DNA from: Nannocystis bainbridge
GTDB taxonomy: Bacteria > Myxococcota_A > Polyangia > Nannocystales > Nannocystaceae
NCBI RefSeq assembly: GCF_028368995.1
Contig: NZ_JAQNDL010000002.1
Coordinates: 1,248,001-1,312,000, forward strand
Direction of reading: 5' to 3'
Length of the DNA stretch: 64,000 bases
The position numbers and the translations under genes were made by a program. Below are positions 327 through 64,000 of this stretch, one piece after another. Positions within the stretch are counted from its first letter, which is position 1, and the number at the start of each line of letters is the position of its first letter. The notes under the pieces are model-generated. The model was not told the origin of the DNA. It ran no database searches and saw nothing but the letters and a program-made list of their open reading frames with translations.

Positions 327-1958
327 TCAGTCGAGGATCCCGTGGATGTACCAGCGGTCGCGCGGGCGGTCGTAGAACAGCCAGGCGATGTCGCCGTGGG
401 CGGTCTCGGCGAAGTAGTAGTCGCGCTCGACCTCGCGGGCCCACCAGCCGCCGCTGATCCGGTACGGCCCGGCCATGCGCACGACGGCGCCGCGGACCAG
501 GCCGCTGGCGGCCAGCCAGTGCTCGTCGGCCTCGTCGCGGCGCGGCAGCGGGACCGGCCGCGGGAGCAGGCGCCGGCACAGCGGCGGGGCGGCCAGGGCC
601 TCATGATGGTTGGCCGGGAGGTCGTGCACGATCGGGCACGTCACGTCGGACACGGGCTCCCAGGCGAAGCTGGCCTCGGGGAGGTGGGCGGAGCGCAGGC
701 TGGCGCGGGTGACGGCCTGCTCGCCGAACGCGGCGCGGACGCGGGCGAGGGCCCGGGCGGCGGCGGCGAGGTCGCGACCGCGGCCGCGCAGGAGGGCGAG
801 CTGCTCGGCGCGGGCGCGGGCGCCGAGGCCGACGAGGACGACGCGCTTGACCGGGGCGGCGAGGGTGAGGCCGTCGAGGCGCAGGCGCAGGAGGTCGAGC
901 AGCTGCAGCAGATCTTCGGGCTCGGCCTGCAGCGGGGCGGCCGGCTCGACGGTGGTGACGGCGGGATCTTCGTGGTCGAGCTCGAGGGTGAGGCGGAGCT
1001 CGACGAGGGCGTCGCCGCCGCTGCAGACCTGGCGTAAGAGACAGGCGATCGGCTCCTTGAGCGCGAACAGCAGCCGCTCGCGGTCGTCGTCGGGCGGGTC
1101 GATCTCGAGCGCGAGCTCGGGCGGATCGTCGGGCTGCGACGGCCGCAGCGGGGCGTGCTCGCGGCCGGAGGCGCGGGCGTGGAGGGCGGCGGCGGCGCTG
1201 CCGAGGCGGGTCCGCACGTCGGCGGCGGGCAGGGCGAGGAAGCCGCCGAGGGTGGAGATCCCGAGCTTCTCGAGGGTGTCCTGAAGGACAGGTGCGAGGT
1301 CGAGCGCGGCGAGCGGGACGGCGCCGACGCGGGCGGCCTCCTCGGCCGGGCTGGCGAGCACGAGCGGGGCGCTCAGCGAGCCGTGGCGGGCCAGGGCGAG
1401 GGTGTGAAAGCGGGTGAAGCCGACGGCGACCCCGGCGGTGTAGCCGAGCGCCTGGAGGTCGCTCCGCAGCCCGCCGGCCCAGGTCGGGAGGTCGCCCTGC
1501 AGCCGCTCGAGGCCGGTGGGATCGAGCCAGAAGACGCCGCGCGGATCGAGGCACGGCTCGACCCGCGGCGAGCGGCGCAGGAGCGCGCGCAGCAGCTCGT
1601 CGGCGGCCTCGTCGAGCATGTCCTCGGGGACAGGTTCGGCGTGGAGATCGGGCACCAGGCCGCGGGCGGCGGCGCAGCGCATGCCGCGAGCGACGCCGCG
1701 GCGCCGCGCGGCCTGGTTGGCCCACAGGACCTCGGCCTGCGGGCCCTCGCGGCGGAGGACGGCGACCGGGGCGCCGCGCAGCTCGGGCCGCCGCCGCAGC
1801 AGGACCTGCAGCGGAAAGGCGGGCAGGTGGGCGCAAGCGAGCCGCGCGGGCGGGTCGAGAGCGAGGCTGTCCTCAGGGACATGTGCCGATGCGCGCGCGC
1901 TGCCGAGGCTCGCAGGCGGAGCTTGGAAGTGGAGCGCGGGCTGGGAGGGACGAGCCAT
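327..1958 (-). CDS. imuB: ImuB, inactive Y-family DNA polymerase
   Basis: Y-family-like N-terminus (NQAARRRGVARGM, SPRVE) and the typical C-terminal GPYRISGGWW...ERDYY...WLFYDR motif. Sits between imuA and dnaE2. Confidence 0.9.
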   Translation of the reverse strand: MARPSQPALHFQAPPASLGSARASAHVPEDSLALDPPARLACAHLPAFPLQVLLRRRPELRGAPVAVLRREGPQAEVLWANQAARRRGVARGMRCAAARGLVPDLHAEPVPEDMLDEAADELLRALLRRSPRVEPCLDPRGVFWLDPTGLERLQGDLPTWAGGLRSDLQALGYTAGVAVGFTRFHTLALARHGSLSAPLVLASPAEEAARVGAVPLAALDLAPVLQDTLEKLGISTLGGFLALPAADVRTRLGSAAAALHARASGREHAPLRPSQPDDPPELALEIDPPDDDRERLLFALKEPIACLLRQVCSGGDALVELRLTLELDHEDPAVTTVEPAAPLQAEPEDLLQLLDLLRLRLDGLTLAAPVKRVVLVGLGARARAEQLALLRGRGRDLAAAARALARVRAAFGEQAVTRASLRSAHLPEASFAWEPVSDVTCPIVHDLPANHHEALAAPPLCRRLLPRPVPLPRRDEADEHWLAASGLVRGAVVRMAGPYRISGGWWAREVERDYYFAETAHGDIAWLFYDRPRDRWYIHGILD

Positions 1959-2099
1959 GAGGCGCGGCGCCTTGAAAGGCGAGCGAGCGGAGGAACGAGC
2001 GGAGCGCGGCGAGCGAGAGCGGGGCGAACGGAGCGCTGCGAAGGCGCAGGGGAGCGCGAGCGCGCGGCGGACTGAAGCGCGGACCGGAGCGCGGGCGCG

Positions 2100-2849
2100 T
2101 CAGGCCAGGCCCCAGGGGCCGCGGCGGAGCTCGCTGGCCGCGAGGCGCGGGGCGGCGCCCTTGTGCTTGAGGACGTCGGGGCGGAGGGCGAACAGGCCGG
2201 CGCCGCGGCGCTCGCGGCGGGGCTGGAGGCGCAGGCCGACCATCGGGCCCAGCGAGTCGCGCCGGGCCGAGCCGCGGGTCAGGAGGACGACGCGGCAGCC
2301 GTGCGCGCGCGCGAGGCCGGCCAGGCGCGCCTGCCAGGCGCTGCCGTGCAGTCCTCGAGGACAGGTCCGAACGGACATGCCCTCGGGGACAGGGCGATCG
2401 GTGGCCGGGATCTTGTCGCTCGCGTCCGCGCGGGCGGGCGGCGGGGCGCTGAGGTCGAGGACGCACAGGCCGTAACCGCCCGAGCGCAGCAGCAGCTCGG
2501 CGGCGCGAGCGATGCCGGCGGCGCCGCGATCCTCGGGGATGTGGACGACGATGAGGGAGTCGAGGTCGACGCCGGAGTCGGCCAGATCGGGCGGGAACAG
2601 CGGCCCGCCGACCGGCTGAATCCACACGGTGGTCTCGCCCTCGAGCTGGGCCTGACGGACCAGCGCGACGGCGGTGGTGAGGCGCGCGCCGGCGGCCCCG
2701 CCCGAGACCTCGATCAGCTTGCCGGGCGCGGCCAGGGTGACGAAGGAGGCGGGAGAAGCGGCGCTTTCGGTGTCTGCGGGAGCTGTCCCTTCGGACAGCT
2801 CATCCACCACGCCTTCCTCTTCGACCCCCCTCAACGCCACGACCGTCAT
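2100..2849 (-). CDS. imuA: ImuA / RecA-like mutagenesis protein
   Basis: GKLIEVSG with a degenerate P-loop, LFPPDLADSGVDLDSL, AAELLLRSGGYGLCVLDL. First gene of the imuAB-dnaE2 cassette. Confidence 0.8.
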   Translation of the reverse strand: MTVVALRGVEEEGVVDELSEGTAPADTESAASPASFVTLAAPGKLIEVSGGAAGARLTTAVALVRQAQLEGETTVWIQPVGGPLFPPDLADSGVDLDSLIVVHIPEDRGAAGIARAAELLLRSGGYGLCVLDLSAPPPARADASDKIPATDRPVPEGMSVRTCPRGLHGSAWQARLAGLARAHGCRVVLLTRGSARRDSLGPMVGLRLQPRRERRGAGLFALRPDVLKHKGAAPRLAASELRRGPWGLA

Positions 2850-2862
2850 GCGTCAAGGTTTA

Positions 2863-2878
2863 CTGAACATCCAATCAG
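2863..2878 (-). promoter_or_regulatory. Putative LexA (SOS) box upstream of imuA
   Basis: Minus strand reads CTGATTGGATGTTCAG, which shares the CTR...GTTCAG ends and spacing of the Myxococcus-type LexA box. It lies in an AT-rich patch 13 bp upstream of the imuA ATG. Confidence 0.55.
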
Positions 2879-3038
2879 AATCAAAGAAATTTGTGTGTCC
2901 TGGCTTACGCTCGGAACTGACCTGCGCGTTCCGGCGCACTGCGCGAGGCTGCGCAGCGCGGATGTGCTCGCGGGCTCGACCTGCTCGAAAGGACAGGTCA
3001 GAAAAGCGCGCGTGAGCGCGTGGTAAAACCGGCAATCG

Positions 3039-4042: not shown

Positions 4043-4438
4043 TCACTCGCGGCCGGTCTCGAACACGAGGCGTCGCGCGAACTCTCCCTCGACGAGGGCG
4101 GCGGCGGCCTCGGCCAGCTGGGCGACGCGGTCGCTGCGTTCGCTGCGGGCGAGGTCGCGGATCTGGTCGAGGAGGGCGCGGTAGGCCCCGAGCAGGCTCT
4201 CGCGCGCGCTGGACAGGCTGTCGGGCGACGATGGGACGTGCGTGGGCGTCACTCGCTGAGGTGATGTGTCCGAAGAGACAGGTTCCGCTGAGTCCGTCGG
4301 GCCGGTTCCTTTGGACATGTCCAATGGGACATGTCTATAGGGAAAGGTGGCGGACGGCGAGGTCGCTCCGGGTTCATCGGGCCTGGTCGGGCCGGACGGC
4401 GTGGCGGGGTTCGTCGTCTCCAGATCGTCGTCGTGCAT
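4043..4438 (-). CDS. Hypothetical protein (disordered N-terminus, helical C-terminus)
   Basis: ORF from ATG at 4438 (MHDDDLETT...) preceded by GGAGG-like sequence. No recognisable domain. Confidence 0.4.
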   Translation of the reverse strand: MHDDDLETTNPATPSGPTRPDEPGATSPSATFPYRHVPLDMSKGTGPTDSAEPVSSDTSPQRVTPTHVPSSPDSLSSARESLLGAYRALLDQIRDLARSERSDRVAQLAEAAAALVEGEFARRLVFETGRE

Positions 4439-4615
4439 CCGAGGCCTCCACGCGAGCCGGTCGCGGCCCGGGCGGCCAGCGTTCTCCGGGGAGGGCGAGG
4501 GTGTCAACGTTCGATCGGGCGCGCGCCGACGCTGCCGCGATCGCGCGGCGCGAGCTCGGCCGTTGAAAGAGCTGTCGCGAGAGACAGGTGAGCGCGCGAG
4601 CGATCGCGGGCGCTC

Positions 4616-5764
4616 TCAGAACGGCACGGAGAAGGCCAGGCTGCCGAGGCGGGCGTACGGCCCGAAGCGGTAGCCCTCCGAGTAGAAGACGTGGTTGTAC
4701 GTCGCCTGCACCCACGCGCCCTTGAGCCAGTGGAGCCCGCGCACGCGGGCGAGGCCGTCGAGCTCGACGGTCATCTCGACGCCGGGGGTGTGCGAGTGGA
4801 ACTTGGTCATCTTCGGGTCGGCGGTGCGATAGATGGTGTCGCTGCCGTAGTTGCCGTCTTCGCGCCAGAAGTAGGCGCCGGACTGGGTGTAGAAGCGGTA
4901 GCGCAGGCGCAGGACGACGCGGCGGAGGAAGCGGACGTGAGCGCGGACCTCGGGGGCGTGGGCGACGATGGCCCAGTCGTCGGCGTAGAAGCGGTAGCGA
5001 CCCTCGAGCACGAGCGGGGTTTTAGGCACGGCGTAGCGCAGGAAGCCGCTCAGGGCGAGGCGCCGGCGCTGGCGCGGGTGCGACTCGTCGAGGCCGTCGC
5101 GGACCTTGCGGTAGGGGTTGTCCTGCGGGCCCTTGGAATAGATGCCCTCGGCCAGCACGCCGCCGAGCAGCCGGCGGGTGAGGGCGTGGGTGTACCCGAG
5201 CCCGAGGTAGTGGACCTGCAGGAGGTTCGAAGGGCGCGCACCTGTCCCGGAGGACATCTCCTCGAGGTTCATGCGACCGCCGGTCCACGGGATGGCCCGA
5301 CCGCCGTAGAGCTGCAGCACGGAGTCGAGGTTGGCCATGTACTGCAGGCTGACGGTGCCGGCGCGGTTGAAGACGTCGCGCGCGCCGCCGAGGCCGAAGC
5401 TGCGCGAGACCCAATCGCTCTCGGTCGAGTAGCGGAAGAAGCCGCCGAACGACCACTCCTTGAGCCGCGCAGAGGCCCGCAGGGTGCCCTCGTGGCGGAA
5501 CTCGGTGAAGAGGAAGTCGCCGCCGGTGACGGCCGCCGCGCCGGCGCCGATCGAGGCCGAGGTGACGGAGTCGAGCAGGTACTCGGCGCCGATCGTGAAG
5601 CGCTCGTCGGGGAGGTCCTTCTCGACGTAGACGACCGGCGCGAGCACCCGGGTCGAGGTCTCGCGGTAGTAGTTGCCGCGCACGGTGACGCGATCCTCGG
5701 CCGCGAGATCGCGGGCGACGAGGAGCGAGACGAAACAGGCGAGGAAGACTAGCCGCAGCCGCAT
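4616..5764 (-). CDS. DUF3570-like outer-membrane beta-barrel protein
   Basis: Signal peptide, DSVTSAS motif, NPY, RYRFYADDWAIVAH, RYRFYTQSGAYF, TADPKM, C-terminal Phe. Adjacent to a DUF4266-like gene. Confidence 0.75.
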   Translation of the reverse strand: MRLRLVFLACFVSLLVARDLAAEDRVTVRGNYYRETSTRVLAPVVYVEKDLPDERFTIGAEYLLDSVTSASIGAGAAAVTGGDFLFTEFRHEGTLRASARLKEWSFGGFFRYSTESDWVSRSFGLGGARDVFNRAGTVSLQYMANLDSVLQLYGGRAIPWTGGRMNLEEMSSGTGARPSNLLQVHYLGLGYTHALTRRLLGGVLAEGIYSKGPQDNPYRKVRDGLDESHPRQRRRLALSGFLRYAVPKTPLVLEGRYRFYADDWAIVAHAPEVRAHVRFLRRVVLRLRYRFYTQSGAYFWREDGNYGSDTIYRTADPKMTKFHSHTPGVEMTVELDGLARVRGLHWLKGAWVQATYNHVFYSEGYRFGPYARLGSLAFSVPF

Positions 5765-13718: not shown

Positions 13719-14441
13719 GTGAGCGAGGCGCAGGTGAGGCTCAAGATCCTGGTCGCCCACGAGCGGCTGGCGCTCGGACAGGCGATCGGCCGGGTGCTGG
13801 CGGCGCAGGGGTTCGTGGCGGTGACGGTGACGGACACGGCGGCGGCCGAGCAGGCGATGCGCGCCGACATGTTCGCCGCGTTGGTGCTCGACGTGGCGTT
13901 GCCGGGCGGCAAGGCGTGTCACGAGCTGATCCAGCTGGCGAAGTCCGAGCTGCCGGCGCCGATCCCCGCGGTCGTGCTGGTGGCGTCGGTGTTCCGCAAG
14001 ACCAGCTACAAGCGACGCCCGACCCAGCTGTACGGGGCCGACGATTACGTCGAGATCCATCGCCTCGGCGATCAGCTGCCGGGCAAGCTGTGGCACCTGC
14101 TCGGCGGCGATCCGGGGGCGATGCCCGGGCTCGTCGAGGCGGAGGCGGTGCTTTCGACGATCCAGGACGAGGGCGATCAGCGGCTGTTCGAGCAGCGCGG
14201 GCGCACGCTGCGGCTGTCCGAGCTGATCGTCGCCGACCTGATCCTGTACGCCGGCGATCGCGTGCTCACGGCCACGACGCAGGCCGAGGCCCGGGCGCTG
14301 CTGGCCGGCGATCTCGAGGCGGCGCGGCAGCTGTTCCGCCAGATCAATCCGGTCCCGCTGGCGCCGGGCGTCGATCCGATCGGCGCCGCCTTCGACGACA
14401 TGATGCGGATGTTCAACCTCGATCCCGGGGAGCCCTCATGA
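13719..14441 (+). CDS. Atypical response regulator (receiver plus helical C-terminal domain)
   Basis: Receiver fold with LDVALPG, but the N-terminal acidic pair is replaced (VAHE). Contains YKRRPTQLYGADDYVE. Confidence 0.7.
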   Translation: MSEAQVRLKILVAHERLALGQAIGRVLAAQGFVAVTVTDTAAAEQAMRADMFAALVLDVALPGGKACHELIQLAKSELPAPIPAVVLVASVFRKTSYKRRPTQLYGADDYVEIHRLGDQLPGKLWHLLGGDPGAMPGLVEAEAVLSTIQDEGDQRLFEQRGRTLRLSELIVADLILYAGDRVLTATTQAEARALLAGDLEAARQLFRQINPVPLAPGVDPIGAAFDDMMRMFNLDPGEPS

Positions 14442-16474
14442 ACGCGCTCCGCTCCGATCTCGCGCGCTGCATCGAATTCTTCGGGAGCGAACGCTGGCGC
14501 GAGCGCAAGGACGCGTCCCGCGACTTGCTGGCGGCGGTCCGCGAGCAGCCGCCCGCGCCGGACCAACTGGCCATCCTCGTCGAACAGCTGCTCGACGGGC
14601 TGGTGACGCCGGACTCGGTGGCACGCCGCTCGGTGTGCCACGAGGTGCTGACGGGCATCGGTCCTTCGGTGGTGCCGGCGATCCGCCGGCGACTCCGGGT
14701 CGGTGGGGTCGGGTCACGCATGGTCGTCGATCTGCTCGGCGACGTCGGCGGGGCCGACGACGTGCCGCTGCTGGCGGCGATCCTCGGCGCCCCGGGCGAC
14801 GACAACGTGCGCGCCTCGGCGGCCGCGGCCCTGGGGGTGCTCGGCGGGGCCGAGGCCGAGCGCGCGCTGGCGAATGTCCTTTCGGACAGCTCGGAGATGC
14901 TGCGGATGTTCGCCCTCGACGCGCTGGCCCGCCTCGGGGTGGTGGTGCCGCCGGCGCGGCTGAGCGGGCTGCTCGCCGATCCGGTGACGCGGCGCGCGGC
15001 GGTGGCGGTGCTCGGGTACAGCGGCGATCCGGCGGCGGCGAGCCAGCTGGTGCAGTTTCTGGGCGATCCGATGCCGGGGGTGCGCGCGGCCGCGGCGGTG
15101 GCGGTGGTGCGGCTGCACGCGACGCTGTCGCTGCGCGGCGATCCGGTGGCAGTCGCGGCGGCGCTGGCGGAGCGCGACGGCGAGCCGCTGCGCCAGCGGA
15201 TCCGCGAGCTCGTCGAGCACCGCCAGCTCGAGGTCAAGCTCGCGGCGCTGGCCCTGGCCGGGGCGCTCGGCGACGTGCGCAGCCTGGCGCATGTCCTCCG
15301 GGCCATGTCGGATCCGGAGCTGCGCGAGCGCGCGGTCGAGTTCGCGGCCGGGCTCGGGGCGGCGGCTGTACCTGTCCTTGTGGACATGGTCGAACAGACA
15401 GCCCCCGAGGCGCTCGGCGATCTGTTCTTGCTGGTGAGCGGGCTCGGGCCGGCGGGCACGCACCCGCGGCTGGTCGAGGCGTTGACGGCGGCGCTGGCCG
15501 GTCCCGACGCCCACGCGGCGTGCATGGCCGCGACGGCGCTCGGCAAGATCGGCGGGCTCGAGGTGATCGCGCCGCTGGCCCGCGCGCTCGCGCTCGAGGG
15601 TCCGGCGGGCGAGGCGGCGGCGGTGGCGTTCGCGGCGGTGGCCGGGCGAGCGCTCGGGTCGCGCCACGCCCGGGTCGCGCCGCATCTGCCGGCGGAAGCG
15701 GGCGGGGGGGCGCTGCTGCGCAACCTGTGCCGCGCGTTCGGCATGCTCGGTCGCGGCGGCGACGTCGGCTTCGTGGCGCCGCTGATCGCCCGGCTCGGCG
15801 ATAGCGACGTCGGCGTGCGTCTGCTGGCCGCACGAGCGCTGGGCCAGATCGGCGGCGAGCACGAGGGCGCGGCGGCGCTGGCCCTGGCGCTGCAAGACGA
15901 GGACGCGGGCGTGCGGGCGGCGGCGTCCCGCAGCCTGGGACAGATCGGCGCGGCGGAGTCGGTGCCGGCGCTGCTGACCGCGTCCCGTGACCCGAGCTCG
16001 TCGGTGCGCGCCGCGGCCGTGCAGGCGCTGGTCGGGCTCGACAACCCGATCGCGCTGACGCGGCTGCGCGAGGTGGTGCTGGCCGACACGGCGCCGGCGG
16101 TGGTGATCCAGGCGATCGCGGGGCTGAGCCGCTCGGGCACCGATCAGGATCTGGTGATGCTGATGAGCCTGTGCCGCGCGCCCGATCACGAGATCGTGAA
16201 GGCGGCGGCGCGCGGGCTGGCCGGCTGTCGCGGGCATCGAGCCACGGCGGCGGTGCTCGGGCTGCTCGAGCACCCGCGCTGGGACGTCCGCTGGGCGGCC
16301 GCCGAGGCGCTGGGCGAGCGCGGCGACACGACCGCCTTGCACCCGCTGCGCCGCGTCCACGCCGTCGAGCCGGATCCGCTGGTGCGCAAGGTGCTGGCGG
16401 GCGCGGTGGCGCGGCTCGAGACGCGCGCGGCCGAGCAGGCGGCGGTCGACGGCGAGGGAGCGCCCACGGCGTGA
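14438..16474 (+). CDS. HEAT/PBS-lyase repeat protein in the chemosensory cluster
   Basis: Many D.xVRxxAAxALG repeats. ATG overlaps the previous stop (ATGA). Confidence 0.88.
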   Translation: MNALRSDLARCIEFFGSERWRERKDASRDLLAAVREQPPAPDQLAILVEQLLDGLVTPDSVARRSVCHEVLTGIGPSVVPAIRRRLRVGGVGSRMVVDLLGDVGGADDVPLLAAILGAPGDDNVRASAAAALGVLGGAEAERALANVLSDSSEMLRMFALDALARLGVVVPPARLSGLLADPVTRRAAVAVLGYSGDPAAASQLVQFLGDPMPGVRAAAAVAVVRLHATLSLRGDPVAVAAALAERDGEPLRQRIRELVEHRQLEVKLAALALAGALGDVRSLAHVLRAMSDPELRERAVEFAAGLGAAAVPVLVDMVEQTAPEALGDLFLLVSGLGPAGTHPRLVEALTAALAGPDAHAACMAATALGKIGGLEVIAPLARALALEGPAGEAAAVAFAAVAGRALGSRHARVAPHLPAEAGGGALLRNLCRAFGMLGRGGDVGFVAPLIARLGDSDVGVRLLAARALGQIGGEHEGAAALALALQDEDAGVRAAASRSLGQIGAAESVPALLTASRDPSSSVRAAAVQALVGLDNPIALTRLREVVLADTAPAVVIQAIAGLSRSGTDQDLVMLMSLCRAPDHEIVKAAARGLAGCRGHRATAAVLGLLEHPRWDVRWAAAEALGERGDTTALHPLRRVHAVEPDPLVRKVLAGAVARLETRAAEQAAVDGEGAPTA

Positions 16475-40395: not shown

Positions 40396-41424
40396 CTACG
40401 TGGCCGGGATCTGCGCGCCGGGAGCGGCCCCCGCGAGCTTGAGCCCGTGGCGGTCCAGGCGCAGGTGAAGGCCGGGGCGCAGGTGCCAAACATGGGGCCG
40501 GAGCACCGCGCCCGTGCCCCCGAGCGCTGCGGCGCGCGCCATCACGGTGCGGTCGATGTCCTCGATCACGGCCGCTCGCAGCGCGCCGAGGTCGGCGCCC
40601 CCGAGGCCGCAGATCCGGCGCAAGATCCGGGTCCGGACCGCTCGTGGAAGGCGATGCAGATCGTCGGTCGACCACCAGGTGTCCGCGCCGCGCCGCCGCG
40701 CGGCCTCTTCGCGCGCGGCCCAGTCGCGCAGCGCCTCCTCCGCGTCGGCGGCCTGTGTGGCGAGACACACGAGTGCCGCCTCGACGCGGGGGTTGTGAGC
40801 CCGGAGCTCCGGCAGCACGCGCTCGCGCACGCGGATGCGCGGCTGTTCTTCGTCGGTGTTGGTCGGGTCGTCGCACCAGGTCATGCCCATGCGCTCGCAC
40901 AGCGCCCGCGTGCCGGCCCGCGGCAGCTCCAACAGCGGCCGCAGCCACGGCGCTTCCCACGGCCGCATCGCCGCCAGGCCCTCGAGTCCGCAGCCGCGGG
41001 CCGCGTGCATGAGCAAGGTCTCGGCTTGATCGGTGGCGGTGTGACCCAGGGCGATCGCGTCGCAGGCGTGCGCCGTCGCGAACGCAGACAAGGCGGCGCG
41101 CCGGGCCTCGCGGGCCCGCGCGGGCAAGCCCGAACCTGGCGAAAGGGACAGGCGCGTCGAGACGCACGCGAGGCCCCGCTCCGCGGCCGATCGCGCGACC
41201 ACCGCGGCCTCGTCGGCGGACTCGGGGCGCAGGCCGTGGTCGACGTGGGCGACGATCAGCGCGAGCGCCTCGTCGCGGGCGAGGAGGTGGAGCAGGCCGA
41301 CGAGCGCGGTCGAGTCGGCGCCGCCCGAACAGGCGACGAGGAGCCGGTGCGGGGAGCCGGCGGCGCGGAGGCTGCGGCGGACCGGGCCGAGAGCGCTGGC
41401 GATGGTCGGGTGGCGGGGTGGCAC
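40396..41424 (-). CDS. tilS: tRNA(Ile)-lysidine synthetase
   Basis: ACSGGADS PP-loop, HVDHGLR, GHTATDQAET, RPLL, DPTN. Upstream of ftsH. Confidence 0.92.
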   Translation of the reverse strand: MPPRHPTIASALGPVRRSLRAAGSPHRLLVACSGGADSTALVGLLHLLARDEALALIVAHVDHGLRPESADEAAVVARSAAERGLACVSTRLSLSPGSGLPARAREARRAALSAFATAHACDAIALGHTATDQAETLLMHAARGCGLEGLAAMRPWEAPWLRPLLELPRAGTRALCERMGMTWCDDPTNTDEEQPRIRVRERVLPELRAHNPRVEAALVCLATQAADAEEALRDWAAREEAARRRGADTWWSTDDLHRLPRAVRTRILRRICGLGGADLGALRAAVIEDIDRTVMARAAALGGTGAVLRPHVWHLRPGLHLRLDRHGLKLAGAAPGAQIPAT

Positions 41425-41453
41425 GCGCGTGCGGCGATGATACCTTCCCGCCG

Positions 41454-43196
41454 ATGACCTCGCCCGCAGAGCTCCCCGGCGCCGGCCTCGACGTCGCCAG
41501 CGTGCAGAGAGACCCGCTCGTGCTCGAGCAGCGCGACGACCTCCCGGAGTTGATCCCGCAGCTGCCGCCGACCGCGTTCGTGCAGATCGCCCGCGGGCTG
41601 CGCGAGGAGGATCGCCTCGACCTGGTGCTGCCGCACGCGTCGCCCGAACAGCTGACTGCGTTGCTCGACCTCGACGGCTGGGAGCGCGAGCGGATCGCCG
41701 TCGACAAGGCGCGCGGGTGGCTGGTGGCGATCGCCGACGCGTACATCGCGGCCGGCAAGCCCCGCGGAGATCTGCGCACCGTCATCGAGGACATGGATCC
41801 CGAGATGTGGACGATGGCGCTGTTGCCCGGGACGGCGGTCTACGAGCTCGATCCGGAGGACAACGAGCAGCGCGACCAGGCGATGGCGGCCGTCGACGCG
41901 CTGTTCCCCTACGAGACGCCCGACGGCGGCTTCGTCGTCGCGGTGCCCGACAACACGCTCGGGCACATGGTCGTGCACGTGCTCGAGCGGGTCTACGCCG
42001 ACGACCTGCAGACGGGGCGCCAGTTGACGCTGTCGCTGCGCGGGGCGCTGCCGGCCCAGCTCGAGGAGGATCTGCTGCGCTGGCGCAGCGGTCGCCTCGC
42101 CGACCTCGGGTTCGTCGCGTGGGAAGAGGCGATGAAGCTGTTCCGGCCGCTCGACGCCAAGTCGGCGCGCGAGGTCGCGGCGGCGCCGGCGGCCGCGGCT
42201 CCGCGCGAGGGCGAGGCGCTGCCGGCGGCGTTCCCGTCGCCGTCGGCGGGGCTGCTGCGGCGGGTGCTCGGCGGGCTGGTGGCGGGCGAGCAGGGCGTGC
42301 GCGCGCGCGAGTTCACGCTGCTCGTCAACGAGCTGATGTCCGCCCAGCGCAGCGAGCCGGGCGACGCCAAGGCGCAAGAGCGGGCGTTCCATCAGGCCGA
42401 GGCGACGGTGAGCCTGGGCCTCGAGGTGCTGGTGGTCGGGCTGAGCCTGCCGCCGGCCGAGGTCGACCCGTTCCTGGCCGGGCGGATCGCGGCGCTGGGG
42501 CTGCGCGGGGTGTTCCGCGTCGGCTACGGGCCGCTGGCGGCGCTGCGCAAGACGGCGCTGGCGCTGCACCGCGAGGGCCGGGTGTCGCTGACGAAGATCG
42601 GGTCGCTGCTCGATCGGCCGTGGGGACCGGCGATCGAGAGCCTGTCGCGGTGGCTGCCCGAGCTGCCGATCGAGACGGCCAGCGCCGGGGTGCGGCCGAT
42701 CGCCGGCATGCGCGACGTGGCCCGCGCGACCGAGCTGCTGGCGCAGGCCGGGGCGTTGGCGGCGTTGACGTTCGACCCGCGCGGCTACGCGGTCGACCCG
42801 CAGTGGGTCAGCCGCGTCGACGAGCCCGATCGGCTGACGCTCGGCGATCTGCTGCGCACCTCGGCGGTGCGCCGGCAGCTGCCCGGGATGTCCGAAGAGA
42901 CAGCCGCGGCGTTCGCCCCGGTCGACGCCGACGACCTGGCGTGGGCCGCCGATCACCTGCTGGTGAACGGCCGTCTGGCCCCGGTCCTGGCCGCCGACCT
43001 GCGCAAGCGCTGCCTGGCGCTCGGGGTCCCGCAGCACGCGGAGGCGTTCGTGAAGGCGGTCCTGCTGCGACTCGAGGTCGAGCTCGGGGCGCTCGAGCGC
43101 GACGAAGAGGGCACGGTCGACCTGCGGCGCGCGGGCGGGGTGATCACGCCGCAGCGGATCGGCGTGTGGCTCAAGACGGGCCTCAGCGCGAGCTGA
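41454..43196 (+). CDS. Conserved hypothetical protein (DUF6178-like)
   Basis: Long ORF with typical codon usage and motifs LDLDGWER and EEDLLRWRSGRLADLGF. Family assignment is from memory, not verified. Confidence 0.55.
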   Translation: MTSPAELPGAGLDVASVQRDPLVLEQRDDLPELIPQLPPTAFVQIARGLREEDRLDLVLPHASPEQLTALLDLDGWERERIAVDKARGWLVAIADAYIAAGKPRGDLRTVIEDMDPEMWTMALLPGTAVYELDPEDNEQRDQAMAAVDALFPYETPDGGFVVAVPDNTLGHMVVHVLERVYADDLQTGRQLTLSLRGALPAQLEEDLLRWRSGRLADLGFVAWEEAMKLFRPLDAKSAREVAAAPAAAAPREGEALPAAFPSPSAGLLRRVLGGLVAGEQGVRAREFTLLVNELMSAQRSEPGDAKAQERAFHQAEATVSLGLEVLVVGLSLPPAEVDPFLAGRIAALGLRGVFRVGYGPLAALRKTALALHREGRVSLTKIGSLLDRPWGPAIESLSRWLPELPIETASAGVRPIAGMRDVARATELLAQAGALAALTFDPRGYAVDPQWVSRVDEPDRLTLGDLLRTSAVRRQLPGMSEETAAAFAPVDADDLAWAADHLLVNGRLAPVLAADLRKRCLALGVPQHAEAFVKAVLLRLEVELGALERDEEGTVDLRRAGGVITPQRIGVWLKTGLSAS

Positions 43197-47464: not shown

Positions 47465-48307
47465 GTGAAGCTGGTCGTGATCGTGACGGGGGCGAGCGGG
47501 GCGATCTATGCCCGCCGGGCGCTGCATGTCCTCGCGGACCTGTGCGCAGGGACAGGGTCGAACGAACCGGCGTACCCGGGCCTCGAGGTCGACTGGGTGG
47601 CGTCGGCGACGGCGCCGCAGGTGTGGCTGACCGAGCTCGGTGAGCCGATGCCGCTCGAGATCTCGGCCCACGTGCCGACGGTGACGGCGGGCGAGCCGGA
47701 CGAGCCGGACGAGCCCGAGGTCCCGCCAGCGCTGCCGAGCGCGACGGCGGCGCGGCGCGAGCCGGGGACGTCGCGGGCGGGGCCGCCGACCGAGTTCTTC
47801 GGCTCGAACGTGTTCGGGCGCATGAGCCAGGCGGTGACCCCGTCGGCCACGCCGACGCTGAAGGGGTCGGCGCGGGAGCCGGGGCCGGCGTCCGAGTCGG
47901 CGCCGAGCCGCGTGCGCCGGTGGGACCGCCAGGACTTCTCGGCCCCGTTCGCGTCGGGCAGCAACGCGCCCGACGCGGTGCTGGTGATGCCGTGCTCGAT
48001 GAGCGCGCTCAGCCGGGTAGCCCACGGCGGCGGCGACGACCTGGCGGCTCGCGCCTGCGAGGTCGCGCTCAAGGAGCGGCGGCGGTTGGTGCTGGTGGTC
48101 CGCGAGACGCCGCTCAGCCTGGTCCATCTGCGCAACATGGTGGCCGCGACCGAGGCCGGGGCGATCATCCTGCCGGCGGTGCCGTCGTTCTATGGGGCCG
48201 TGCGCACGCTCGAGGACGCGGTCGACACCGTGGTCGCGCGCGCGCTCGATCACGTCGGGCTGCGCGTGCCGCTGACCCGCCGCTGGGGCGATCCGGAGAG
48301 CGCATGA
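47465..48307 (+). CDS. ubiX: UbiX-family flavin prenyltransferase with an internal Pro-rich insertion
   Basis: VTGASGAIYA, FSAPFASGS, PCSMSAL, ALKERRRLVLVVRETP, PSFY. Confidence 0.88.
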   Translation: MKLVVIVTGASGAIYARRALHVLADLCAGTGSNEPAYPGLEVDWVASATAPQVWLTELGEPMPLEISAHVPTVTAGEPDEPDEPEVPPALPSATAARREPGTSRAGPPTEFFGSNVFGRMSQAVTPSATPTLKGSAREPGPASESAPSRVRRWDRQDFSAPFASGSNAPDAVLVMPCSMSALSRVAHGGGDDLAARACEVALKERRRLVLVVRETPLSLVHLRNMVAATEAGAIILPAVPSFYGAVRTLEDAVDTVVARALDHVGLRVPLTRRWGDPESA

Positions 48308-49020
48308 CGCCCGCCGAGCTGGCGCGCCTGTTCGACCAGCCGGCCGAGGCCGGGGCCCGCGCGCAGGCGGCCCGCGCGAGCCATTTCGGGCGCCGGGTCC
48401 AGGTCCGCGGGACGCCGCCGCACCCGCCGCCGACCGTGGCGGCGCTGCTGCGCGGGGCGGGCCCGGTGGTGGTCGATCTTCCGGGCTGGTCTCAAGAGCA
48501 TGTCGCAAGGGCCATGGCCGATGCGACAGGGCGCTCGGGACATGCCGAATCGGACATGTCCTCGGGGACATGTGCGAGCGCCGCTCCCGGGTGGCCGGAG
48601 CCGGCGGCGCTGCGGGCCGGCGACCGCGTGGTGCTGCAGGTCGATCGGGCGCGGCTGGGCGACTACTTCGAATACCTGGTGCGCCTGGCCGCCGCGGCGC
48701 CGGAGGGGCTGTCGGTGGCGCCGTACTGCGCGCTGGCGGGCGGGCTGATGCGCCTGCACCTGATCGCGGCGGCGCGCGTGGCCCTGCCGGGGCGGGTGCG
48801 CGTCGAGGCGCGCCACGACTTGCTCGGCATCCGCCTGGCCCAGGTCGCGCTCGGGTTCGGCGCCGACACGCTGGCCGGCCCGCTGGCGCAGACCCGCAAG
48901 CTGCCGCTGGCCGGCGTGCCGCGGCCGGACGAGGCGACCCCCGCCGGTCTGGCGGCGCTGATCGAGCGGGCCGGGCTCGAACCTGTCCTTGACGACATGA
49001 CCTCGGAGACATTGCCATGA
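48304..49020 (+). CDS. Degenerate MqnE/CofH-like protein lacking the radical-SAM cysteine motif
   Basis: C-terminus GIRLAQVALGFGADTLAG...LAALIERAGLEPV parallels MqnE GVKTAQIALSFGVDDLDG...LVRLIREAGRTAV. No CxxxCxxC. Overlaps ubiX and mqnE (ATGA). Confidence 0.6.
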   Translation: MTPAELARLFDQPAEAGARAQAARASHFGRRVQVRGTPPHPPPTVAALLRGAGPVVVDLPGWSQEHVARAMADATGRSGHAESDMSSGTCASAAPGWPEPAALRAGDRVVLQVDRARLGDYFEYLVRLAAAAPEGLSVAPYCALAGGLMRLHLIAAARVALPGRVRVEARHDLLGIRLAQVALGFGADTLAGPLAQTRKLPLAGVPRPDEATPAGLAALIERAGLEPVLDDMTSETLP

Positions 49021-54432: not shown

Positions 54433-54510
54433 AGCATGTCTCTTTGGACATGCCCTTGTAAGCATGTCTGTCAGAGCATGTTCAAAAGGGCATGTCTGAA
54501 TGGACATGCC
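54433..54510. repeat. 14-bp-phased motif chain
   Basis: CATG at 54435, 54449, 54463, 54477, 54491 and 54505. Confidence 0.88.
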
Positions 54511-54514
54511 ATCC

Positions 54515-56088: not shown

Positions 56089-56275
56089 GACAGGTCCGAT
56101 GTGGCCTGGCGTGCCCGTGGCTCCGCGCGCGATCGGCATGTCTTATAAGACAGGTCCGATGTGGCCTGGCGTGCCCGTGGCTCCGCGCGCGATCGGCATG
56201 TCTTATAAGACAGGTCCGTCATGGCGCGGCGCATGCGTGGCTCCGCGCGCGATCGGCCTGTCTCGTGGGACAGGT
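56089..56275. repeat. 60-bp tandem repeat (2 near-identical plus 1 degenerate unit)
   Basis: GACAGGTCCGATGTGGCCTGGCGTGCCCGTGGCTCCGCGCGCGATCGGCATGTCTTATAA. Each junction forms TGTC-N6-GACA (56139, 56199, 56259). Confidence 0.9.
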
Positions 56276-56380
56276 CGATGAGACGCTTCCGCGGTCACCG
56301 AGCGCCGTCTCGAGGGACAGCTCAGTCGCTGCGAGTCACGGGTTCATCCTGTCCCGAGGGACAGGTGGACGCTCGCGGCC

Positions 56381-57967
56381 TCAGTGGACGATCCGCAGCT
56401 CGCGGGCCGGGTCGCGCAGGGGCTGCTGCTTCTTGGCCTCGGGCCGCTCGCCGCGCGGGTTGGTGCCGCGGCGCAGGATCTCGGTGGTGGGCGGGTAGAA
56501 GAGGTCCCAGGACTCGGTCTTCGCCATCTCGCCGGCCTGGTAGAGCTTGCGGGTGCGCACGACCTTGAAGCCGCGCATGCCTCGCTGCGACACGGTCTCG
56601 GCGCCGCTGGCGAGGCTGGAGTCGCTGCGAACGATGGTCTCGAACGGCAGGACCTCCTGCACGCGCCGCTCGAAGGCGACCTCGTCGAACACCTTGCGAG
56701 CGCCGAGGACCTCGATACGGACCTTGCCGGCGGCGACCTTGGTGTGGAACACGACCGGGAAGTCGAAGCTGTTCTTGAGCTTCATGTCGACGTGGCCGTA
56801 GACGACGGTCGAGTCGAGGCCCATGTCGACGTAGGCGCTGGGCCGGCTGTGCGGGCGGCTGTGCACGAGGTCGAGGCCGGCGAAGAAGGCGGCGCCGTAG
56901 AGGGTGGAGCTGATCTGGCAGATGCCGCCGCCGACGGTGTCGATCAGCTCGCCGTCGGCGATGCCGGCGGCGAAGCGGTAGCCGGCCTCGCCGGTGCGAT
57001 CGCCGACGATCTGGTTGAACGACATGGTGGCGCCCGGCATCAGGACGAAGCCGTCGAGCGGAGCGGCGCCGATCTTGAGGTTGTAGGCGCGGTCGGCGTA
57101 GTTGGCTTCGGTCGAGTACGGGGTCTCGAAGGCGGCGAGCACGGCGCCGATGTCGAGGCCGTCAGCGATGCTGGCCCAAGGGTCAGGTACTTCGGGACCT
57201 GGCTGCGTGACCAGGTCGATGCGGTCGCCGCCCGAGGCGAGGCCGACGGCGACGGCCGACAGCGAGTCGAAGGCGGACAGCCGGGTGCCGCGCTGGGCCG
57301 GCAGGACGCGCCGGTTGTCCATGTCGAAGCGCGTGGCGAGGCTGGGGCGCTCGACCTTGGGGGCGAGGGCGAGCAGCTGGGCGAGCGCGACTTCTTCGTT
57401 GAAGCGGAAGCCGGGGGCGAGGTCGACCTCGCCGCGGAGGGCCCGGTCGCGGGCGCGCAGGTCGGCGAGGAGGTCACCGCTGTGGCCAACGCGGAGGGCG
57501 GCCTCGATCGCGGCCTCGGGCGCGGGCACGGCCCCGAGCGCGCGGGCGGTGGTCTCGACCTCGACGCCGGGGGCGGCGAGCAGGAGCTTGCGATCGAGGG
57601 CGGTGAGGACGGCGGTCTCGGCGATCGCGGGCAGCTCGGCCGCGGTCAGGCCGCCGACCTCGTGGCCGCCGAGGCGGACGCCGGGGATGACTTGGCCCGG
57701 GTCGCGGGCGGCGGCGAGGTCCTGCCACAGCACGGCGGCGACGGCCGCGAGGCCGAGAGCCATGGCGGTGGACTCGAGGACGGGGAGGACGCCGAGGCGG
57801 CGCCGACGAGCGGCGGGGACGGCCTCGGGCGCGGCTTCGGGGGCCGCTTCGGACGCGTCGAGGAGCTCGAGCGCGGGCGTGGCGGTCGGCACGAGCGTGC
57901 GCGGCTGGGCCCGACGAGGGGCCAGCGTGCGGGCGGCCGCTGCGGCGCGCGGTGCTGGCTGCGACAT
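56381..57967 (-). CDS. VanW-family protein with putative peptidoglycan-binding and G5-like regions
   Basis: RAYNLK, SFNQIVGDRT, GGGICQISSTLY, HSRPSAYV..GLDSTV. N-terminal TM. Confidence 0.88.
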   Translation of the reverse strand: MSQPAPRAAAAARTLAPRRAQPRTLVPTATPALELLDASEAAPEAAPEAVPAARRRRLGVLPVLESTAMALGLAAVAAVLWQDLAAARDPGQVIPGVRLGGHEVGGLTAAELPAIAETAVLTALDRKLLLAAPGVEVETTARALGAVPAPEAAIEAALRVGHSGDLLADLRARDRALRGEVDLAPGFRFNEEVALAQLLALAPKVERPSLATRFDMDNRRVLPAQRGTRLSAFDSLSAVAVGLASGGDRIDLVTQPGPEVPDPWASIADGLDIGAVLAAFETPYSTEANYADRAYNLKIGAAPLDGFVLMPGATMSFNQIVGDRTGEAGYRFAAGIADGELIDTVGGGICQISSTLYGAAFFAGLDLVHSRPHSRPSAYVDMGLDSTVVYGHVDMKLKNSFDFPVVFHTKVAAGKVRIEVLGARKVFDEVAFERRVQEVLPFETIVRSDSSLASGAETVSQRGMRGFKVVRTRKLYQAGEMAKTESWDLFYPPTTEILRRGTNPRGERPEAKKQQPLRDPARELRIVH

Positions 57968-61612: not shown

Positions 61613-61710
61613 GGCGGCGGCAGGATGCCTGTCCTGTTGGACAGGTGAGGGAACTCGAAGCGGGCCTGGCCTTTCGGACAGCTCGGCGTGCTGGCTTCGG
61701 AGGCTCTTCT

Positions 61711-62175
61711 TTAAAATTGTAGCGCGAAGCCGCCGCCGGTCGGCTTGACGCGGATCTTCGCGGTCCAGTCCTCGCGGCTCCGCGTGAAGCGCTCGTAGCG
61801 GACTGCGCCGATGGCGGTGAGCGGCATGCCGACGAGCAGCATCAGGGCGCCGGGGATCAGGAAGTGGAGGCCCGCGTAGGGGCCTTGGGGCGCGGGGCCC
61901 GGGGGGGGGTCCTGCGGGTTCATCACCAGGAGGGTGCCGACGATCGTGGTGGGGATCCCGAAGGCGAACAGGCTGGCGCCGACGATCAGCGACTTGAGGC
62001 CGCGCGGTTGCGGGTACTGTTCTGCGACGACCGGGGCCGGGCCGGGGTCCTGGCATGGTTTCCCGGCGGCGGCCGAGCGAACCGGCAAGCGACAGGGGCG
62101 GAGGCCCGCGGTCGCGGTCGTCGGGGCGAGGGCGACGAGGGCAGCGAGCGAACACAGGCACGACGCGCGGCGCAT
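61711..62175 (-). CDS. Hypothetical exported/membrane protein
   Basis: Signal peptide, two hydrophobic segments, C-terminal GGFALQF. GGAG RBS. Confidence 0.55.
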   Translation of the reverse strand: MRRASCLCSLAALVALAPTTATAGLRPCRLPVRSAAAGKPCQDPGPAPVVAEQYPQPRGLKSLIVGASLFAFGIPTTIVGTLLVMNPQDPPPGPAPQGPYAGLHFLIPGALMLLVGMPLTAIGAVRYERFTRSREDWTAKIRVKPTGGGFALQF

Positions 62176-62876: not shown

Positions 62877-62905
62877 TTGACGCGTCTCGTGCAGCCGGGT
62901 AAAAG
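62877..62905 (+). promoter_or_regulatory. Putative sigma70 promoter for tRNA-Thr
   Basis: TTGACG (62877-62882), a 17-bp spacer, TAAAAG (62900-62905), with an A-tract upstream. Confidence 0.5.
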
Positions 62906-62921
62906 CCCGACCCTCGGTTGT

Positions 62922-62994
62922 GCCACTTTAGCTCAGTTGGTAGAGCAGCTGATTCGTAATCAGCAGGTCTCCGGTTCGAGTCCGGAAAGTGGCT
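62922..62994 (+). tRNA. tRNA-Thr(CGT)
   Basis: Cloverleaf: acceptor GCCACTT/AAGTGGC, D-arm GCTC/GAGC, anticodon stem GCTGA/TCAGC with loop TT-CGT-AA, T-arm TCCGG-TTCGAGT-CCGGA. CCA not encoded. Confidence 0.97.
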
Positions 62995-63131
62995 TGAGTC
63001 TCTCTTATTCGAGGCGGTCTCCGTCGCGGTCTATTCCCGCGCAGGAGGCCGCCTGTCCGTCGTGCCGCGGTTTGCGGCGGCTTGCGGCGGCACGGGCCCG
63101 GCTGCGGCGCATTGCCGCGGCGCTGTCAGTT

Positions 63132-63560
63132 TCACGGCGGCGTGGGCTCCCCGTCGGGACGCAGCGTGGTCTGGATGGACATGCCCGAAGCGACATGTCC
63201 GCGAGAACCGGTGAAGATGCGCGCCTCGGCAGCGGGGGTGCCGCGGTGGATGAGCAGCGCGACGGCGCTGCCGGGCCGCGAGCCGCCGTCGCGGAAGTGG
63301 GCCTGGACCTGGACGCGCCAGTGGAGGTCGTCGTGCTTCTCCATGCGGCAGGTGAAGCCGAGCATGGCGTCGTCGATGGGGCGCTGGCTCGGGACGTCGG
63401 ACGGGAGCACGACCCACCACCAGTCGTGCACGGCGGTGCCCTCGAAGACGCGGTAAAGCTCGCCGTCCTGGACGTTGGCGGCGTACGCCGACGGGATGGG
63501 TCGTGGCTCCGGATCGTCGCTGGTCCCCGCGAAGCTGCGCTGAGCGTCACTCTGATTCAC
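63132..63560 (-). CDS. Hypothetical protein
   Basis: GTG start preceded by a strong GGAGGTG Shine-Dalgarno. Globular-looking sequence with no recognised domain. Confidence 0.6.
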   Translation of the reverse strand: MNQSDAQRSFAGTSDDPEPRPIPSAYAANVQDGELYRVFEGTAVHDWWWVVLPSDVPSQRPIDDAMLGFTCRMEKHDDLHWRVQVQAHFRDGGSRPGSAVALLIHRGTPAAEARIFTGSRGHVASGMSIQTTLRPDGEPTPP

Positions 63561-64000
63561 GGCTCACCTCCCATGCGGCCTCTACGGTGAAGAAGGTCGG
63601 TGGCCGGGCAAGTGACTCGGGCTACCGGCGGCGTCGCGGGGCCGCCGCTGGCGAGAGCGCGGCGAGACGCGGTGATGCGCCAGGCCGGTCGCTTCGACCG
63701 CGGAACGTGGCTGTCGCAGGCCAGGCGCTGCGAGATCCGGCGGCGACGGCGACGGCGGCGAGGCGCGCCGATCCGCGCGAGCCGCGAGGGGCTCCGCACA
63801 GGCCGGGGTCGCGACCCGGCGCGCGGTTGCATGCGCGAGGGCGTGGGCGGCTGCGCGTGTGCTCGTTACGAGCGGTGGCCGGCATGTCCTTGCGGACATA
63901 TTCGCCCGCGGCCAGGGGCGCCGATCCTGGCGAGCCATGAGGGACAGCGCGCGGGGGGCCTCGCGCCAGGGCGTGCGCGAGGGCCTGCAAGAGGTTTTCG

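Follow-up and report, generated by a model that had tools for sequence, protein, structure and literature searches.

Several short motifs are so abundant in bacterial genomes that each of them revealed a genome-wide process, as was the case for HIP1, for the repetitive extragenic palindromic (REP) elements, for the DNA uptake sequences (DUS) of Neisseria and the uptake signal sequences (USS) of Pasteurellaceae, and for Chi. A REP element is an imperfect palindrome of 20-40 bp, extragenic in position and with a conserved head tetranucleotide, and the REP-associated tyrosine transposase (RAYT) is a Y1 transposase of the IS200/IS605 type. HIP1 of cyanobacteria is a contiguous 8-mer palindrome (GCGATCGC) with methylase targets, 15- to 300-fold over-represented within and between reading frames. 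The passages on HIP1 drawn on here describe it as conserved between genomes, infer selection, find no sign that it acts through a peptide, an RNA or gene regulation, and propose a role at the level of the nucleoid (PMC5861425). In this work, a 64,000-nt window (the whole stretch analysed, C3:1248001-1312000) of the Nannocystis bainbridge genome (label G000; 11.05 Mb, 71.5% G+C, five contigs, completeness 90.5%) was examined for the gapped palindrome TGTC-N6-GACA, which a first-pass annotation made from the letters alone had listed at 40 positions and ascribed to an undescribed chromosome-wide system. Searches of the printed literature returned no description of the motif or of REP-like repeats in myxobacteria, and the passages of genome papers that were covered mention CRISPR only.

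A pattern search of the window returned exactly 40 sites, with 40/40 starts as listed, against a chance level of 0.55 (sd 0.86, maximum 3) in 100 dinucleotide-preserving shuffles. Over the whole genome, the spacing k=6 gives 3,663 copies, or about one exact core per 3 kb, while the counts for k=0-5 and k=7-19 lie between 29 and 175. The naive genome expectation is 74, and a reversed-pattern control occurs 25 times. The count of 984 at k=20 derives from abutting copies, as do 2,237 cases of GACA-N0-TGTC and 1,576 of TGTC-N10-TGTC. When synonymous codons were shuffled in the 7,660 called genes, 77-92 copies were obtained inside genes compared with the 1,216 observed, and the peak was found at k=6 alone. 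Intergenic DNA holds 2,407 copies versus 46-49 under a third-order Markov model, again with the excess confined to gap 6. The over-representation is 15-fold in genes (relative to the codon shuffles) and about 50-fold in intergenic DNA. Furthermore, in a blind scan of all 4-mer gapped palindromes with gaps of 0-12, the seven top signals were views of this one motif, namely ATGT-N8-ACAT (57-fold), TGTC-N6-GACA (44-fold), ACAT-N12-ATGT, GACA-N0-TGTC, CTGT-N8-ACAG, CATG-N10-CATG and GTCC-N4-GGAC. The relaxed pattern TG[TC][CT][CTG]-N4-[GAC][GA][AG]CA has 6,808 genomic sites. Local duplications had been named as a minor source of copies, and they are present (a 36-bp period at 28822-28907 and a 60-bp tandem at 56139-56272), yet they do not explain the excess: the 6-nt centre occurs in 854 variants among the 3,663 copies, and 96 copies have a dispersed relative. 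The gene ftsH (38346-40307) is free of copies, as had been said. The excess of TGTC-N6-GACA is therefore confirmed as real, genome-wide and spacing-specific.

The position matrix of all 3,663 copies gives the consensus RC[A/C]TGTCC-N4-GGACA[T/G]GY (C 0.71 at -2; A 0.58 or C 0.37 at -1; C 0.75 at +4; G 0.72 at +9; T 0.59 or G 0.35 at +14; G 0.61 at +15), and the extended consensus proposed earlier, CMTGTCC-N4-GGACAKG, matches it. The same matrix contains no conservation outside +/-4 of the 14-bp core and no GTAG-like head. Since nothing is conserved beyond the consensus, the motif has no element body. The outermost TG and CA, 10 bp or one helical turn apart (TG-N10-CA), are the positions least tolerant of change. 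Preferences in the centre are mirror-symmetric, with Y following TGTCC and R preceding GGACA, and no pairing covariation was found there (Watson-Crick combinations at positions 5/8, 1,209 versus 1,221.5 expected; at 6/7, 987 versus 962.7). In about half of the copies a third half-site abuts (GGACA-TGTCC, i.e. tail-to-tail GGACATGTCC). An exact parse of half-sites yielded 2,477 head-to-head and 972 tail-to-tail pairs that stand alone, together with some 1,040 longer chains, which reach eight half-sites with a 14-bp period and N4 spacers that vary from unit to unit. Of successive copies, 28% lie no more than 200 bp apart.

Positions relative to genes were taken from our own codon-score caller, which called 7,660 genes covering 81% of the genome and whose stop codons are exact. 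Outside called genes there are 2,408 copies (1.155 per kb), inside them 1,216 (0.136 per kb) and on their edges 39, so the motif is 8.5-fold denser outside. Convergent gaps are the richest (2.74 per kb; 44% of them with a copy), followed by tandem (1.08) and divergent gaps (0.44), and among convergent gaps of 100-250 bp the density reaches 5.2 copies per kb, versus 1.6 for tandem and 0.2 for divergent gaps. Tandem gaps 450-1,200 bp long contain 372 copies; 151 of them fall in the two deciles next to the upstream stop and 8 in the last decile. The few copies in divergent gaps (0.2-0.6 per kb, the poorest class) are placed in mid-gap. A copy lies within 100 nt after the stop in 1,377 of the 7,660 called genes (18%), and there are 1,178 copy-to-stop distances of at most 50 nt and 146 such copy-to-start distances. 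The motif is thus shown to be concentrated directly after stops, above all between convergent genes, and to be scarce before starts. Within genes, the first T falls on the third codon base in 616 copies, on the second in 502 and on the first in 98. The codon preceding GTC has to be a rare T-ending one, with G or C more than 10-fold rarer at that place. The stop-codon pile-up, the two-phase coding copies, which make up one third of all, and the tail-to-tail chains of half-sites are three features that the first-pass annotation had missed.

Five species of the same genus, about 90% identical over 83-88% of the window, served as relatives for the analysis of conservation. For eleven window copies, both flanks could be aligned in four or more relatives; seven of these are intact in every relative with differing centres, two are kept in 3/4 or 3/5 relatives, and two are found in this genome only. 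One of the latter, 37025..37038, lies in phase 3 in a multihaem cytochrome gene and differs by a single base from all five relatives (GGACC for GGACA in 5/5, a point difference). The other, 2784..2797, lies in phase 2 in the coding sequence (CDS) 2100..2810(-) and is intact in 0/5 relatives, four of which carry GGCCA instead of GGACA, with C replacing A in the right arm, while G003 differs more; because of this single-base difference in four relatives, a point change and not an insertion separates it from them. Third codon positions within the core are 97.9% identical (192 cells, five relatives), compared with 84.1% at other third positions and 78.1% in the centre. Over 185-260 kb of aligned DNA, core and other third positions are 92.1% versus 82.7% identical in G003 and 94.0% versus 85.6% in G001. 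The contrast is larger for A or T at the third codon base, where identity in the core is 84.6% (n=52) versus 39.4% elsewhere (n=4,042) for G003, and 86.1% (n=36) versus 41.4% (n=2,703) for G001. The motif is therefore shown to be constrained as DNA, even at synonymous sites. Turnover accompanies this constraint, with 28/48 (G003) and 22/34 (G001) of the aligned coding copies intact. Matching gaps in the other species carry copies of their own, and their density is similar, 0.31-0.48 per kb.

The ImuB-like gene at the start of the window, 327..1958(-) of the IMS family, illustrates how such sites came about. It carries three copies in phase 3, at 1277..1290 (PVLQDT; core intact in 5/5 relatives, other residues in the outgroup genera), at 1619..1632 in the IMS domain (PVPEDM; intact in 5/5 relatives, absent in the outgroup genera) and at 1868..1881 (HVPEDS; intact in 3/4 alignable relatives, with TGGC in G010). 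Between two of the species a histidine is replaced by a proline or the reverse in this gene, and C[A/C]TGTCC is retained in both. All of the 14/14 other-genus genomes shown have different codons and partly different residues at the three sites (e.g. SPKLRDH versus APVLQDT), hence the sites were built in place by substitution. The motif is shown to arise and to persist in place by point substitution. The gene itself (impB/mucB/samB family) shares 39-50% identity with homologues from other genera of the family and 94% within the genus, which places the genus on a long branch.

The motif is strongly restricted to one lineage. Its 18-base form CATGTCC-N4-GGACATG occurs 369 times in N. bainbridge and 2-266 times in 10/10 other genomes of the genus, where the low counts belong to fragmentary assemblies; two other genera have 5 and 2 occurrences, the remaining 18 of the 31 genomes searched have none, and the control pattern gave 0 everywhere. 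Among 121 genomes of the class, the 14-base core was counted 3,663 times in N. bainbridge (control 25) and 422, 283 and 329 times in three genomes of genus g4 (controls 18, 24 and 50), and none of the other 117 exceeded about eight times its own control. In 200-kb samples of G011 and G013, genomes of sister genera, the N6 peak of the motif is weak (14 and 11 copies versus 0-7 and 0-1 at other spacings, the second pair of counts being that of a g4 genome), and no separate iterated palindrome was found in them. The motif is thus hugely expanded in one genus (about 150-fold), moderate in a sister genus (7- to 23-fold) and near background elsewhere. Along the N. bainbridge chromosome, the counts per 100 kb (mean 33) correlate with G+C (Spearman 0.46) and have no obvious gradient, the contigs being unordered. 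A comparison of density with foreign islands had also been proposed; the poorest 100-kb bins contain 4 copies, at 68.6-69.2% G+C, with atypical codon usage and poor codon-score coverage, so the motif is shown to be depleted from compositionally atypical DNA. Products of these bins include an RHS/TcdB-like polymorphic toxin, STAND-type proteins and an SNF2 helicase, which gives them the look of accessory DNA.

We hypothesize that TGTC-N6-GACA is a HIP1/REP-like recognition site of a putative two-fold-symmetric factor acting at gene ends. This tentative reading, to which we give a probability of roughly 45%, retains much of the earlier proposal of an undescribed chromosome-wide system, which held as regards a genome-wide, lineage-specific, dyad-symmetric motif with constraint at the level of DNA, and whose symmetric factor is the leading idea here. 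Candidates for the factor are a DNA-binding protein acting as a dimer and an enzyme that would cleave or grip DNA across the 4-bp centre; in either case it would serve as a boundary or topology element where transcription units end. The copies in genes and in disordered tails would be by-products of a genome-wide pressure, tolerated where a V-[L/P]-x-D-[S/M/T] or [L/M]-S-x-[G/R]-T peptide is harmless. The gyrase sites in REP elements and bacterial interspersed mosaic elements (BIMEs) of E. coli would serve as the analogy for the role at gene ends, and HIP1 for the genome-wide maintenance.

The likeness to REP/BIME follows from the free 4-bp centre, the strict TG-N10-CA, the position behind genes and between convergent ones, and the chains. 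In enterobacteria and pseudomonads, REP/BIME elements likewise have high copy numbers, lie mostly in intergenic DNA near 3' ends, are clustered and are specific to a species or genus. Unlike them, the motif has no RAYT gene, no GTAG-type head and a unit of 14-20 bp; moreover, one third of its copies lie in reading frames and are conserved there, and its gains are by substitution. The likeness to HIP1 follows from the conservation inside genes and the origin in place. The enrichment of the motif lies within the 15-300-fold range of HIP1, and its conservation between related genomes goes beyond neutral. Nevertheless, it is a different sequence in another phylum, a gapped dyad with a free 4-nt centre that forms 14-bp chains, is 8.5-fold denser outside genes and is concentrated after stops. 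The passages on E. coli gyrase drawn on here give a 4-bp stagger of the cut, enrichment downstream of transcribed operons and over-representation in REP/BIME-2, with the REPs of BIME-2 as preferred sites of cleavage (PMC6379681).

Several points weigh against a symmetric factor at gene ends. The 1,216 in-gene copies are spread evenly along the gene length without 3' enrichment, and a boundary role makes no sense there. The gene-end bias could partly come from tolerance, through avoidance of promoters, and not from function; in addition, some of the copies counted as intergenic are really coding, since the caller under-calls genes. The four variable stem pairs covary modestly (odds ratios 1.8-3.3; unpaired combinations 0.3-1.7), which implies some intrastrand pairing, as hairpin or cruciform, or a templated correction from arm to arm, and not a simple duplex reading. 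Half-sites are enriched in both inverted orientations and as 14-bp chains, which a single dimer site does not usually show. Non-coding copies were alignable in 12/71 cases (G003) and 19/54 cases (G001), versus 53% and 61% of non-coding bases, which means that they lie in poorly alignable DNA and that individual intergenic sites turn over fast. The five relatives share ancestry and are not independent samples, so that counts of cells overstate independence. Finally, a search for a cognate gene among genes flanked by copies gave 175 heterogeneous genes and no candidate protein.

It is also possible, although we consider it doubtful, that an undiscovered chromosome-wide system reads the motif out, either a nucleoid or topology factor or a self-DNA tag in uptake or recombination, and that this system would be ancestral to two genera and about ten-fold amplified in one. 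If this is true, the pressure would have been able to drive rare codons and amino-acid replacements to fixation in more than 1,000 genes and would also have seeded repeat-rich disordered tails such as that of ScpA, and cyanobacteria would no longer be alone in having a HIP1-like system, here with a gapped dyad as its site. In any case, a constraint at the level of DNA shapes protein sequence here. The clean on/off contrast among genera should make the responsible gene findable by phyletic profiling, and the gene-end signature could offer an entry to how very GC-rich bacteria without canonical terminators delimit their transcription units or handle the supercoiling between convergent genes. For annotators of these genomes, the motif can be used in practice as a mark of native versus foreign DNA.

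The explanation that survives best beside a symmetric factor, though we regard it as unlikely, is an RNA hairpin at mRNA 3' ends, in which a 5-10-bp stem with a 4-nt loop would end transcription or protect the 3' end, possibly via a hairpin-binding protein, and in which the in-gene copies would be masked by ribosomes. The pile-up after stops and in convergent gaps, with 18% of genes having a copy within 100 nt, is in line with it, and so are the covariation of the paired positions and the stable folds of examples (-17.6 and -46.3 kcal/mol). Canonical hairpin-plus-T-tract terminators occur at chance in 20 kb of the window (7 versus 4.3 +/- 1.9), so that another signal may be needed. However, no polarity of any kind relative to transcription was found. 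For 1,224 oriented intergenic copies in tandem gaps, a centre and its reverse complement are about equally frequent on the sense strand, and the tetraloops are balanced (CTTCGG 27 versus CCGAAG 38), the UUCG type not being commoner in sense orientation. One-mismatch variants that G.U pairing would permit are not favoured either (229 versus 199 in intergenic DNA, 279 versus 338 in coding DNA). In 836 copies oriented by the upstream gene, the flanks are mirror-symmetric and no T-run follows the stem. Moreover, the stem has a fixed sequence, relatively rich in A/T for a genome of 72% GC, and stability alone would not select it; the copies are conserved inside genes; and one of five example regions folds no better than its shuffles (z +0.65). 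An intrinsic terminator was considered as well and rejected: the position after stops fits, but the 836 oriented copies lack a U-tract.

A self-recognition tag under molecular drive, for instance a DNA-uptake signal through which DNA with the motif is preferentially taken up or recombined, appears quite unlikely. Such a tag would account for the restriction to a genus with a weaker form in a sister genus, for the depletion in atypical DNA, for the origin and persistence of in-gene copies in place with two preferred phases, and for copies downstream of genes, where DUS and USS stand as inverted pairs. DUS and USS are also lineage-specific, occur roughly once per kb in preferred frames, are stable at orthologous positions and are rare in foreign DNA. 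However, they are asymmetric 9-12-mers and not dyads with a fixed gap, and neither the sharp concentration in the first decile after stops nor the 14-bp chains is predicted by an uptake signal. N. bainbridge encodes homologues of ComEC and DprA, which say little because both also match most control genomes, including non-competent ones. According to the part of a 2024 preprint drawn on here, HIP1 improves natural transformation in a cyanobacterium, and this counts for an uptake role.

The first-pass annotation had further raised a methylation- or repair-driven motif, of the kind proposed for HIP1. In the form considered here, an orphan methyltransferase or a bipartite type I-like enzyme would read TGTC-N6-GACA, and biased repair or an epigenetic function would maintain the sites; we consider this very unlikely. 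The geometry of 4 + N6 + 4 suits the targets of bipartite methylases, and the genome has two type I hsdM/hsdS pairs (C1:2006586-2008855 and C2:1539952-1542280) and 12 matches to N6/N4 methylases. The hsdS that was inspected (419 aa) has room for two target-recognition domains, as is usual, and Pfam matched a single Methylase_S stretch there. As a rule, restriction targets are avoided and not enriched, nothing links any methylase, hsdM/hsdS included, to the motif, and the gene-end bias is not predicted. One version of the idea, linked to C5 methylation, lost ground: C5 DNA methylases had no match in the 11-Mb genome, which makes a repair drive of the very-short-patch (VSP) type unlikely. For HIP1, the passages at hand tie abundance to methylases (PMC4390886).

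A REP-like element or miniature inverted-repeat transposable element (MITE), spread by a transposase or a hairpin-binding enzyme and with coding copies as in-frame insertions, is highly improbable. Thousands of short palindromes near gene ends, clustered and hypervariable between species, do recall REP/BIME; the stem pairs covary, and one clean 14-bp presence/absence difference exists between G000 and G001. Against this, the Y1 transposase family of RAYT (PF01797) has 0 matches in N. bainbridge, while 6/14 control genomes match. In addition, 3,567 of the 3,663 copies have no dispersed relative of at least 50 bp, the centres are nearly free, a head is missing, and the examined coding copies differ from those of relatives and outgroups by substitution and not by insertion. 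Rickettsia palindromic elements (RPE) are DNA-level palindromic repeats translated within proteins as well, but they are mobile insertions of 100-150 bp. A MITE in the strict sense was rejected, as the 96 copies that do have a dispersed relative (at least 50 bp, at least 85% identity) lie in ordinary multicopy elements. Ends of insertion sequences were likewise rejected: the multicopy elements with copies (1.4 kb, 1.95 kb and a 13-kb inverted repeat) hold the motif internally and not terminally. The 13-kb inverted repeat stands at the end of C5 (C5:707284-720618), is partly shared with the start of C2 (C2:1-3617), and could reflect either a genuine large repeat or a join made in assembly.

Dimeric helix-turn-helix (HTH) operators share with the motif two inverted half-sites of 4-5 bp about one helical turn apart, e.g. 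CRP/FNR (TGTGA-N6-TCACA and TTGAT-N4-ATCAA), the lux box, the SOS box and PadR (ATGT-N8-ACAT). The PadR operator even fits the motif, being itself 57-fold enriched, but the PadR family (PF03551) has 0 matches in N. bainbridge, while 14/14 control genomes match. Unlike such operators, the motif has thousands of sites and not tens, and they lie behind genes. The comparison with the lux and SOS boxes made in the first-pass annotation therefore does not hold for a promoter operator, since divergent gaps are the poorest class (0.2-0.6 per kb versus 5.2 in short convergent gaps), few copies lie within 50 nt of starts and promoter regions are avoided. The motif is not a promoter operator, not a transposing repeat with a body and not a peptide motif. 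The last of these, a peptide V-[L/P]-x-D-[S/M] selected in disordered regions with the palindrome as a side effect, can practically be dismissed in spite of the in-frame DVLGDM, GHVLRDS and PVPEDS arrays of ScpA, the cytochrome and a small GTPase, as it is contradicted by the counts: about two thirds of the copies (2,408/3,663) lie outside called genes, two phases (616 and 502) and a T-ending codon are used, amino acids change while the DNA motif stays, and the coding copies have no preference for low complexity (protein-segment entropy 3.509 versus 3.510 at random positions of the same genes).

In the window, 19 of the 40 copies are in called genes, 9 in long N-terminal extensions of open reading frames (ORFs; ScpB, an RluB-like synthase and the multihaem cytochrome) and 11 in apparently non-coding DNA, and one (48557..48570) is in an uncalled stretch between 48307 and 48628 that overlaps the ORF 47920..49020 and measures 36-330 nt in the five relatives. 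In the DUF3570 gene 4616..5764(-), the copy 5243..5256 (phase 2) has its core intact in 5/5 relatives with a differing centre. Both copies in the HEAT-repeat gene 14438..16474(+) are in phase 3 and intact in 5/5 relatives, 14875..14888 as NVLSDS and 15373..15386 as PVLVDM, the latter with differing centres. The same number of relatives retains 42889..42902 (phase 2, CDS 41418..43196(+)) and 48984..48997 (phase 3, PVLDDM, CDS 48628..49020(+)).

Among the non-coding copies, 4267..4280 lies in the convergent gap 3951-4615 with flanks that are unalignable to the five relatives. Its neighbour 4318..4331 has half-sites abutting on both sides (GGACATGTCC...GGACATGTCT) and takes part in an 11-pair hairpin within 4250-4345, and 4573..4586 follows the stop of the DUF3570 gene by 29 nt. 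In a further convergent gap, 54437..54450 and 54493..54506 form the left and right halves of a composite hairpin at 54425-54515; the two copies with their flanks fold at -46.3 kcal/mol (z -7.1), and this inverted duplication is local and recalls REP doublets. Downstream of the VanW/G5 gene 56381..57892(-), a 60-bp tandem repeat (56101-56280) consists of two identical units, a diverged third and a partial upstream unit, with one copy each at 56139..56152, 56199..56212 and, in the diverged unit, 56259..56272. The copy 56350..56363 lies 17 nt after the stop of the same gene; the matching gap contains four TGTCTGAAGAGACA-type copies in G005 and only a degenerate N10 form in G001, and is otherwise unalignable. 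In the convergent gap 67 nt after the stop of 61711..62175(-), 61630..61643 forms an 8-pair hairpin (-17.6 kcal/mol), and 63885..63898 is in an uncalled stretch at the window end.

The row of scpA, scpB and the rluB-like gene (22033-30430) has very long extensions. The ScpA domain covers aa 43-248 of a 1,061-aa ORF (22033..25218(+)) with an acidic tail, the ScpB domain aa 311-467 of 1,033, and the S4 and PseudoU domains of the 684-aa RluB-like ORF begin at aa 406. The ScpA tail, which is unalignable between species, carries eight copies: 23352..23365 (phase 3, DVPGDM), 23400..23413 (DVLGDM), 23553..23566 (DVLEDM), 23700..23713 (DVLGDM), 23919..23932 (DVPEDT), 24162..24175 (DVLGDM), 24990..25003 (DVLEDM) and 25104..25117 (AVLSDS), the last with a copy at the matching place in G001. 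The ScpB ORF 25244..28345(+) has one copy (25923..25936), which lies in its N-terminal extension and precedes the ScpB domain. The extension of the RluB-like ORF 28376..30430(+) contains three copies with the 36-bp period, 28822..28835, 28858..28871 and 28894..28907, and an additional one at 29164..29177. These open frames are kept in six species with varying lengths, ScpA ranging from 1,096 to 1,589 residues and from 8 to 18 copies.

The multihaem cytochrome ORF 35640..37670(+) (Cytochrome_C7, paired CXXCH) begins with a variable tail of GHVL[R/K]DS repeats that precedes a membrane segment, with copies at 35672..35685 (GHVRKD), 35711..35724 (GHVLRDM), 35747..35760 (GHVLRDS) and 35783..35796 (GHVPRDS). 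The frame of this tail is open in 6/6 species despite varying length and 0-5 motif copies. Further along the gene, the copy 37025 abuts 37039..37052 (GGACA-TGTCC), which is read in phase 2 and has its core intact in 3/5 relatives.

Outside the window, the interval C5:658301-660900 encodes a small Arf/Ras-like GTPase with a proline-rich tail, in which 11 motif copies are read as PVPEDS-type repeats. The motif-poor interval C1:1100000-1300000, of low G+C (68.6-69.2%), encodes an RHS/TcdB-like protein with a NucA/NucB DNase end, an SNF2 helicase and two further proteins, one of adenylate-cyclase/AAA/TPR and one of pentapeptide/WD40 type; the interval probably represents an island of accessory or defence genes.

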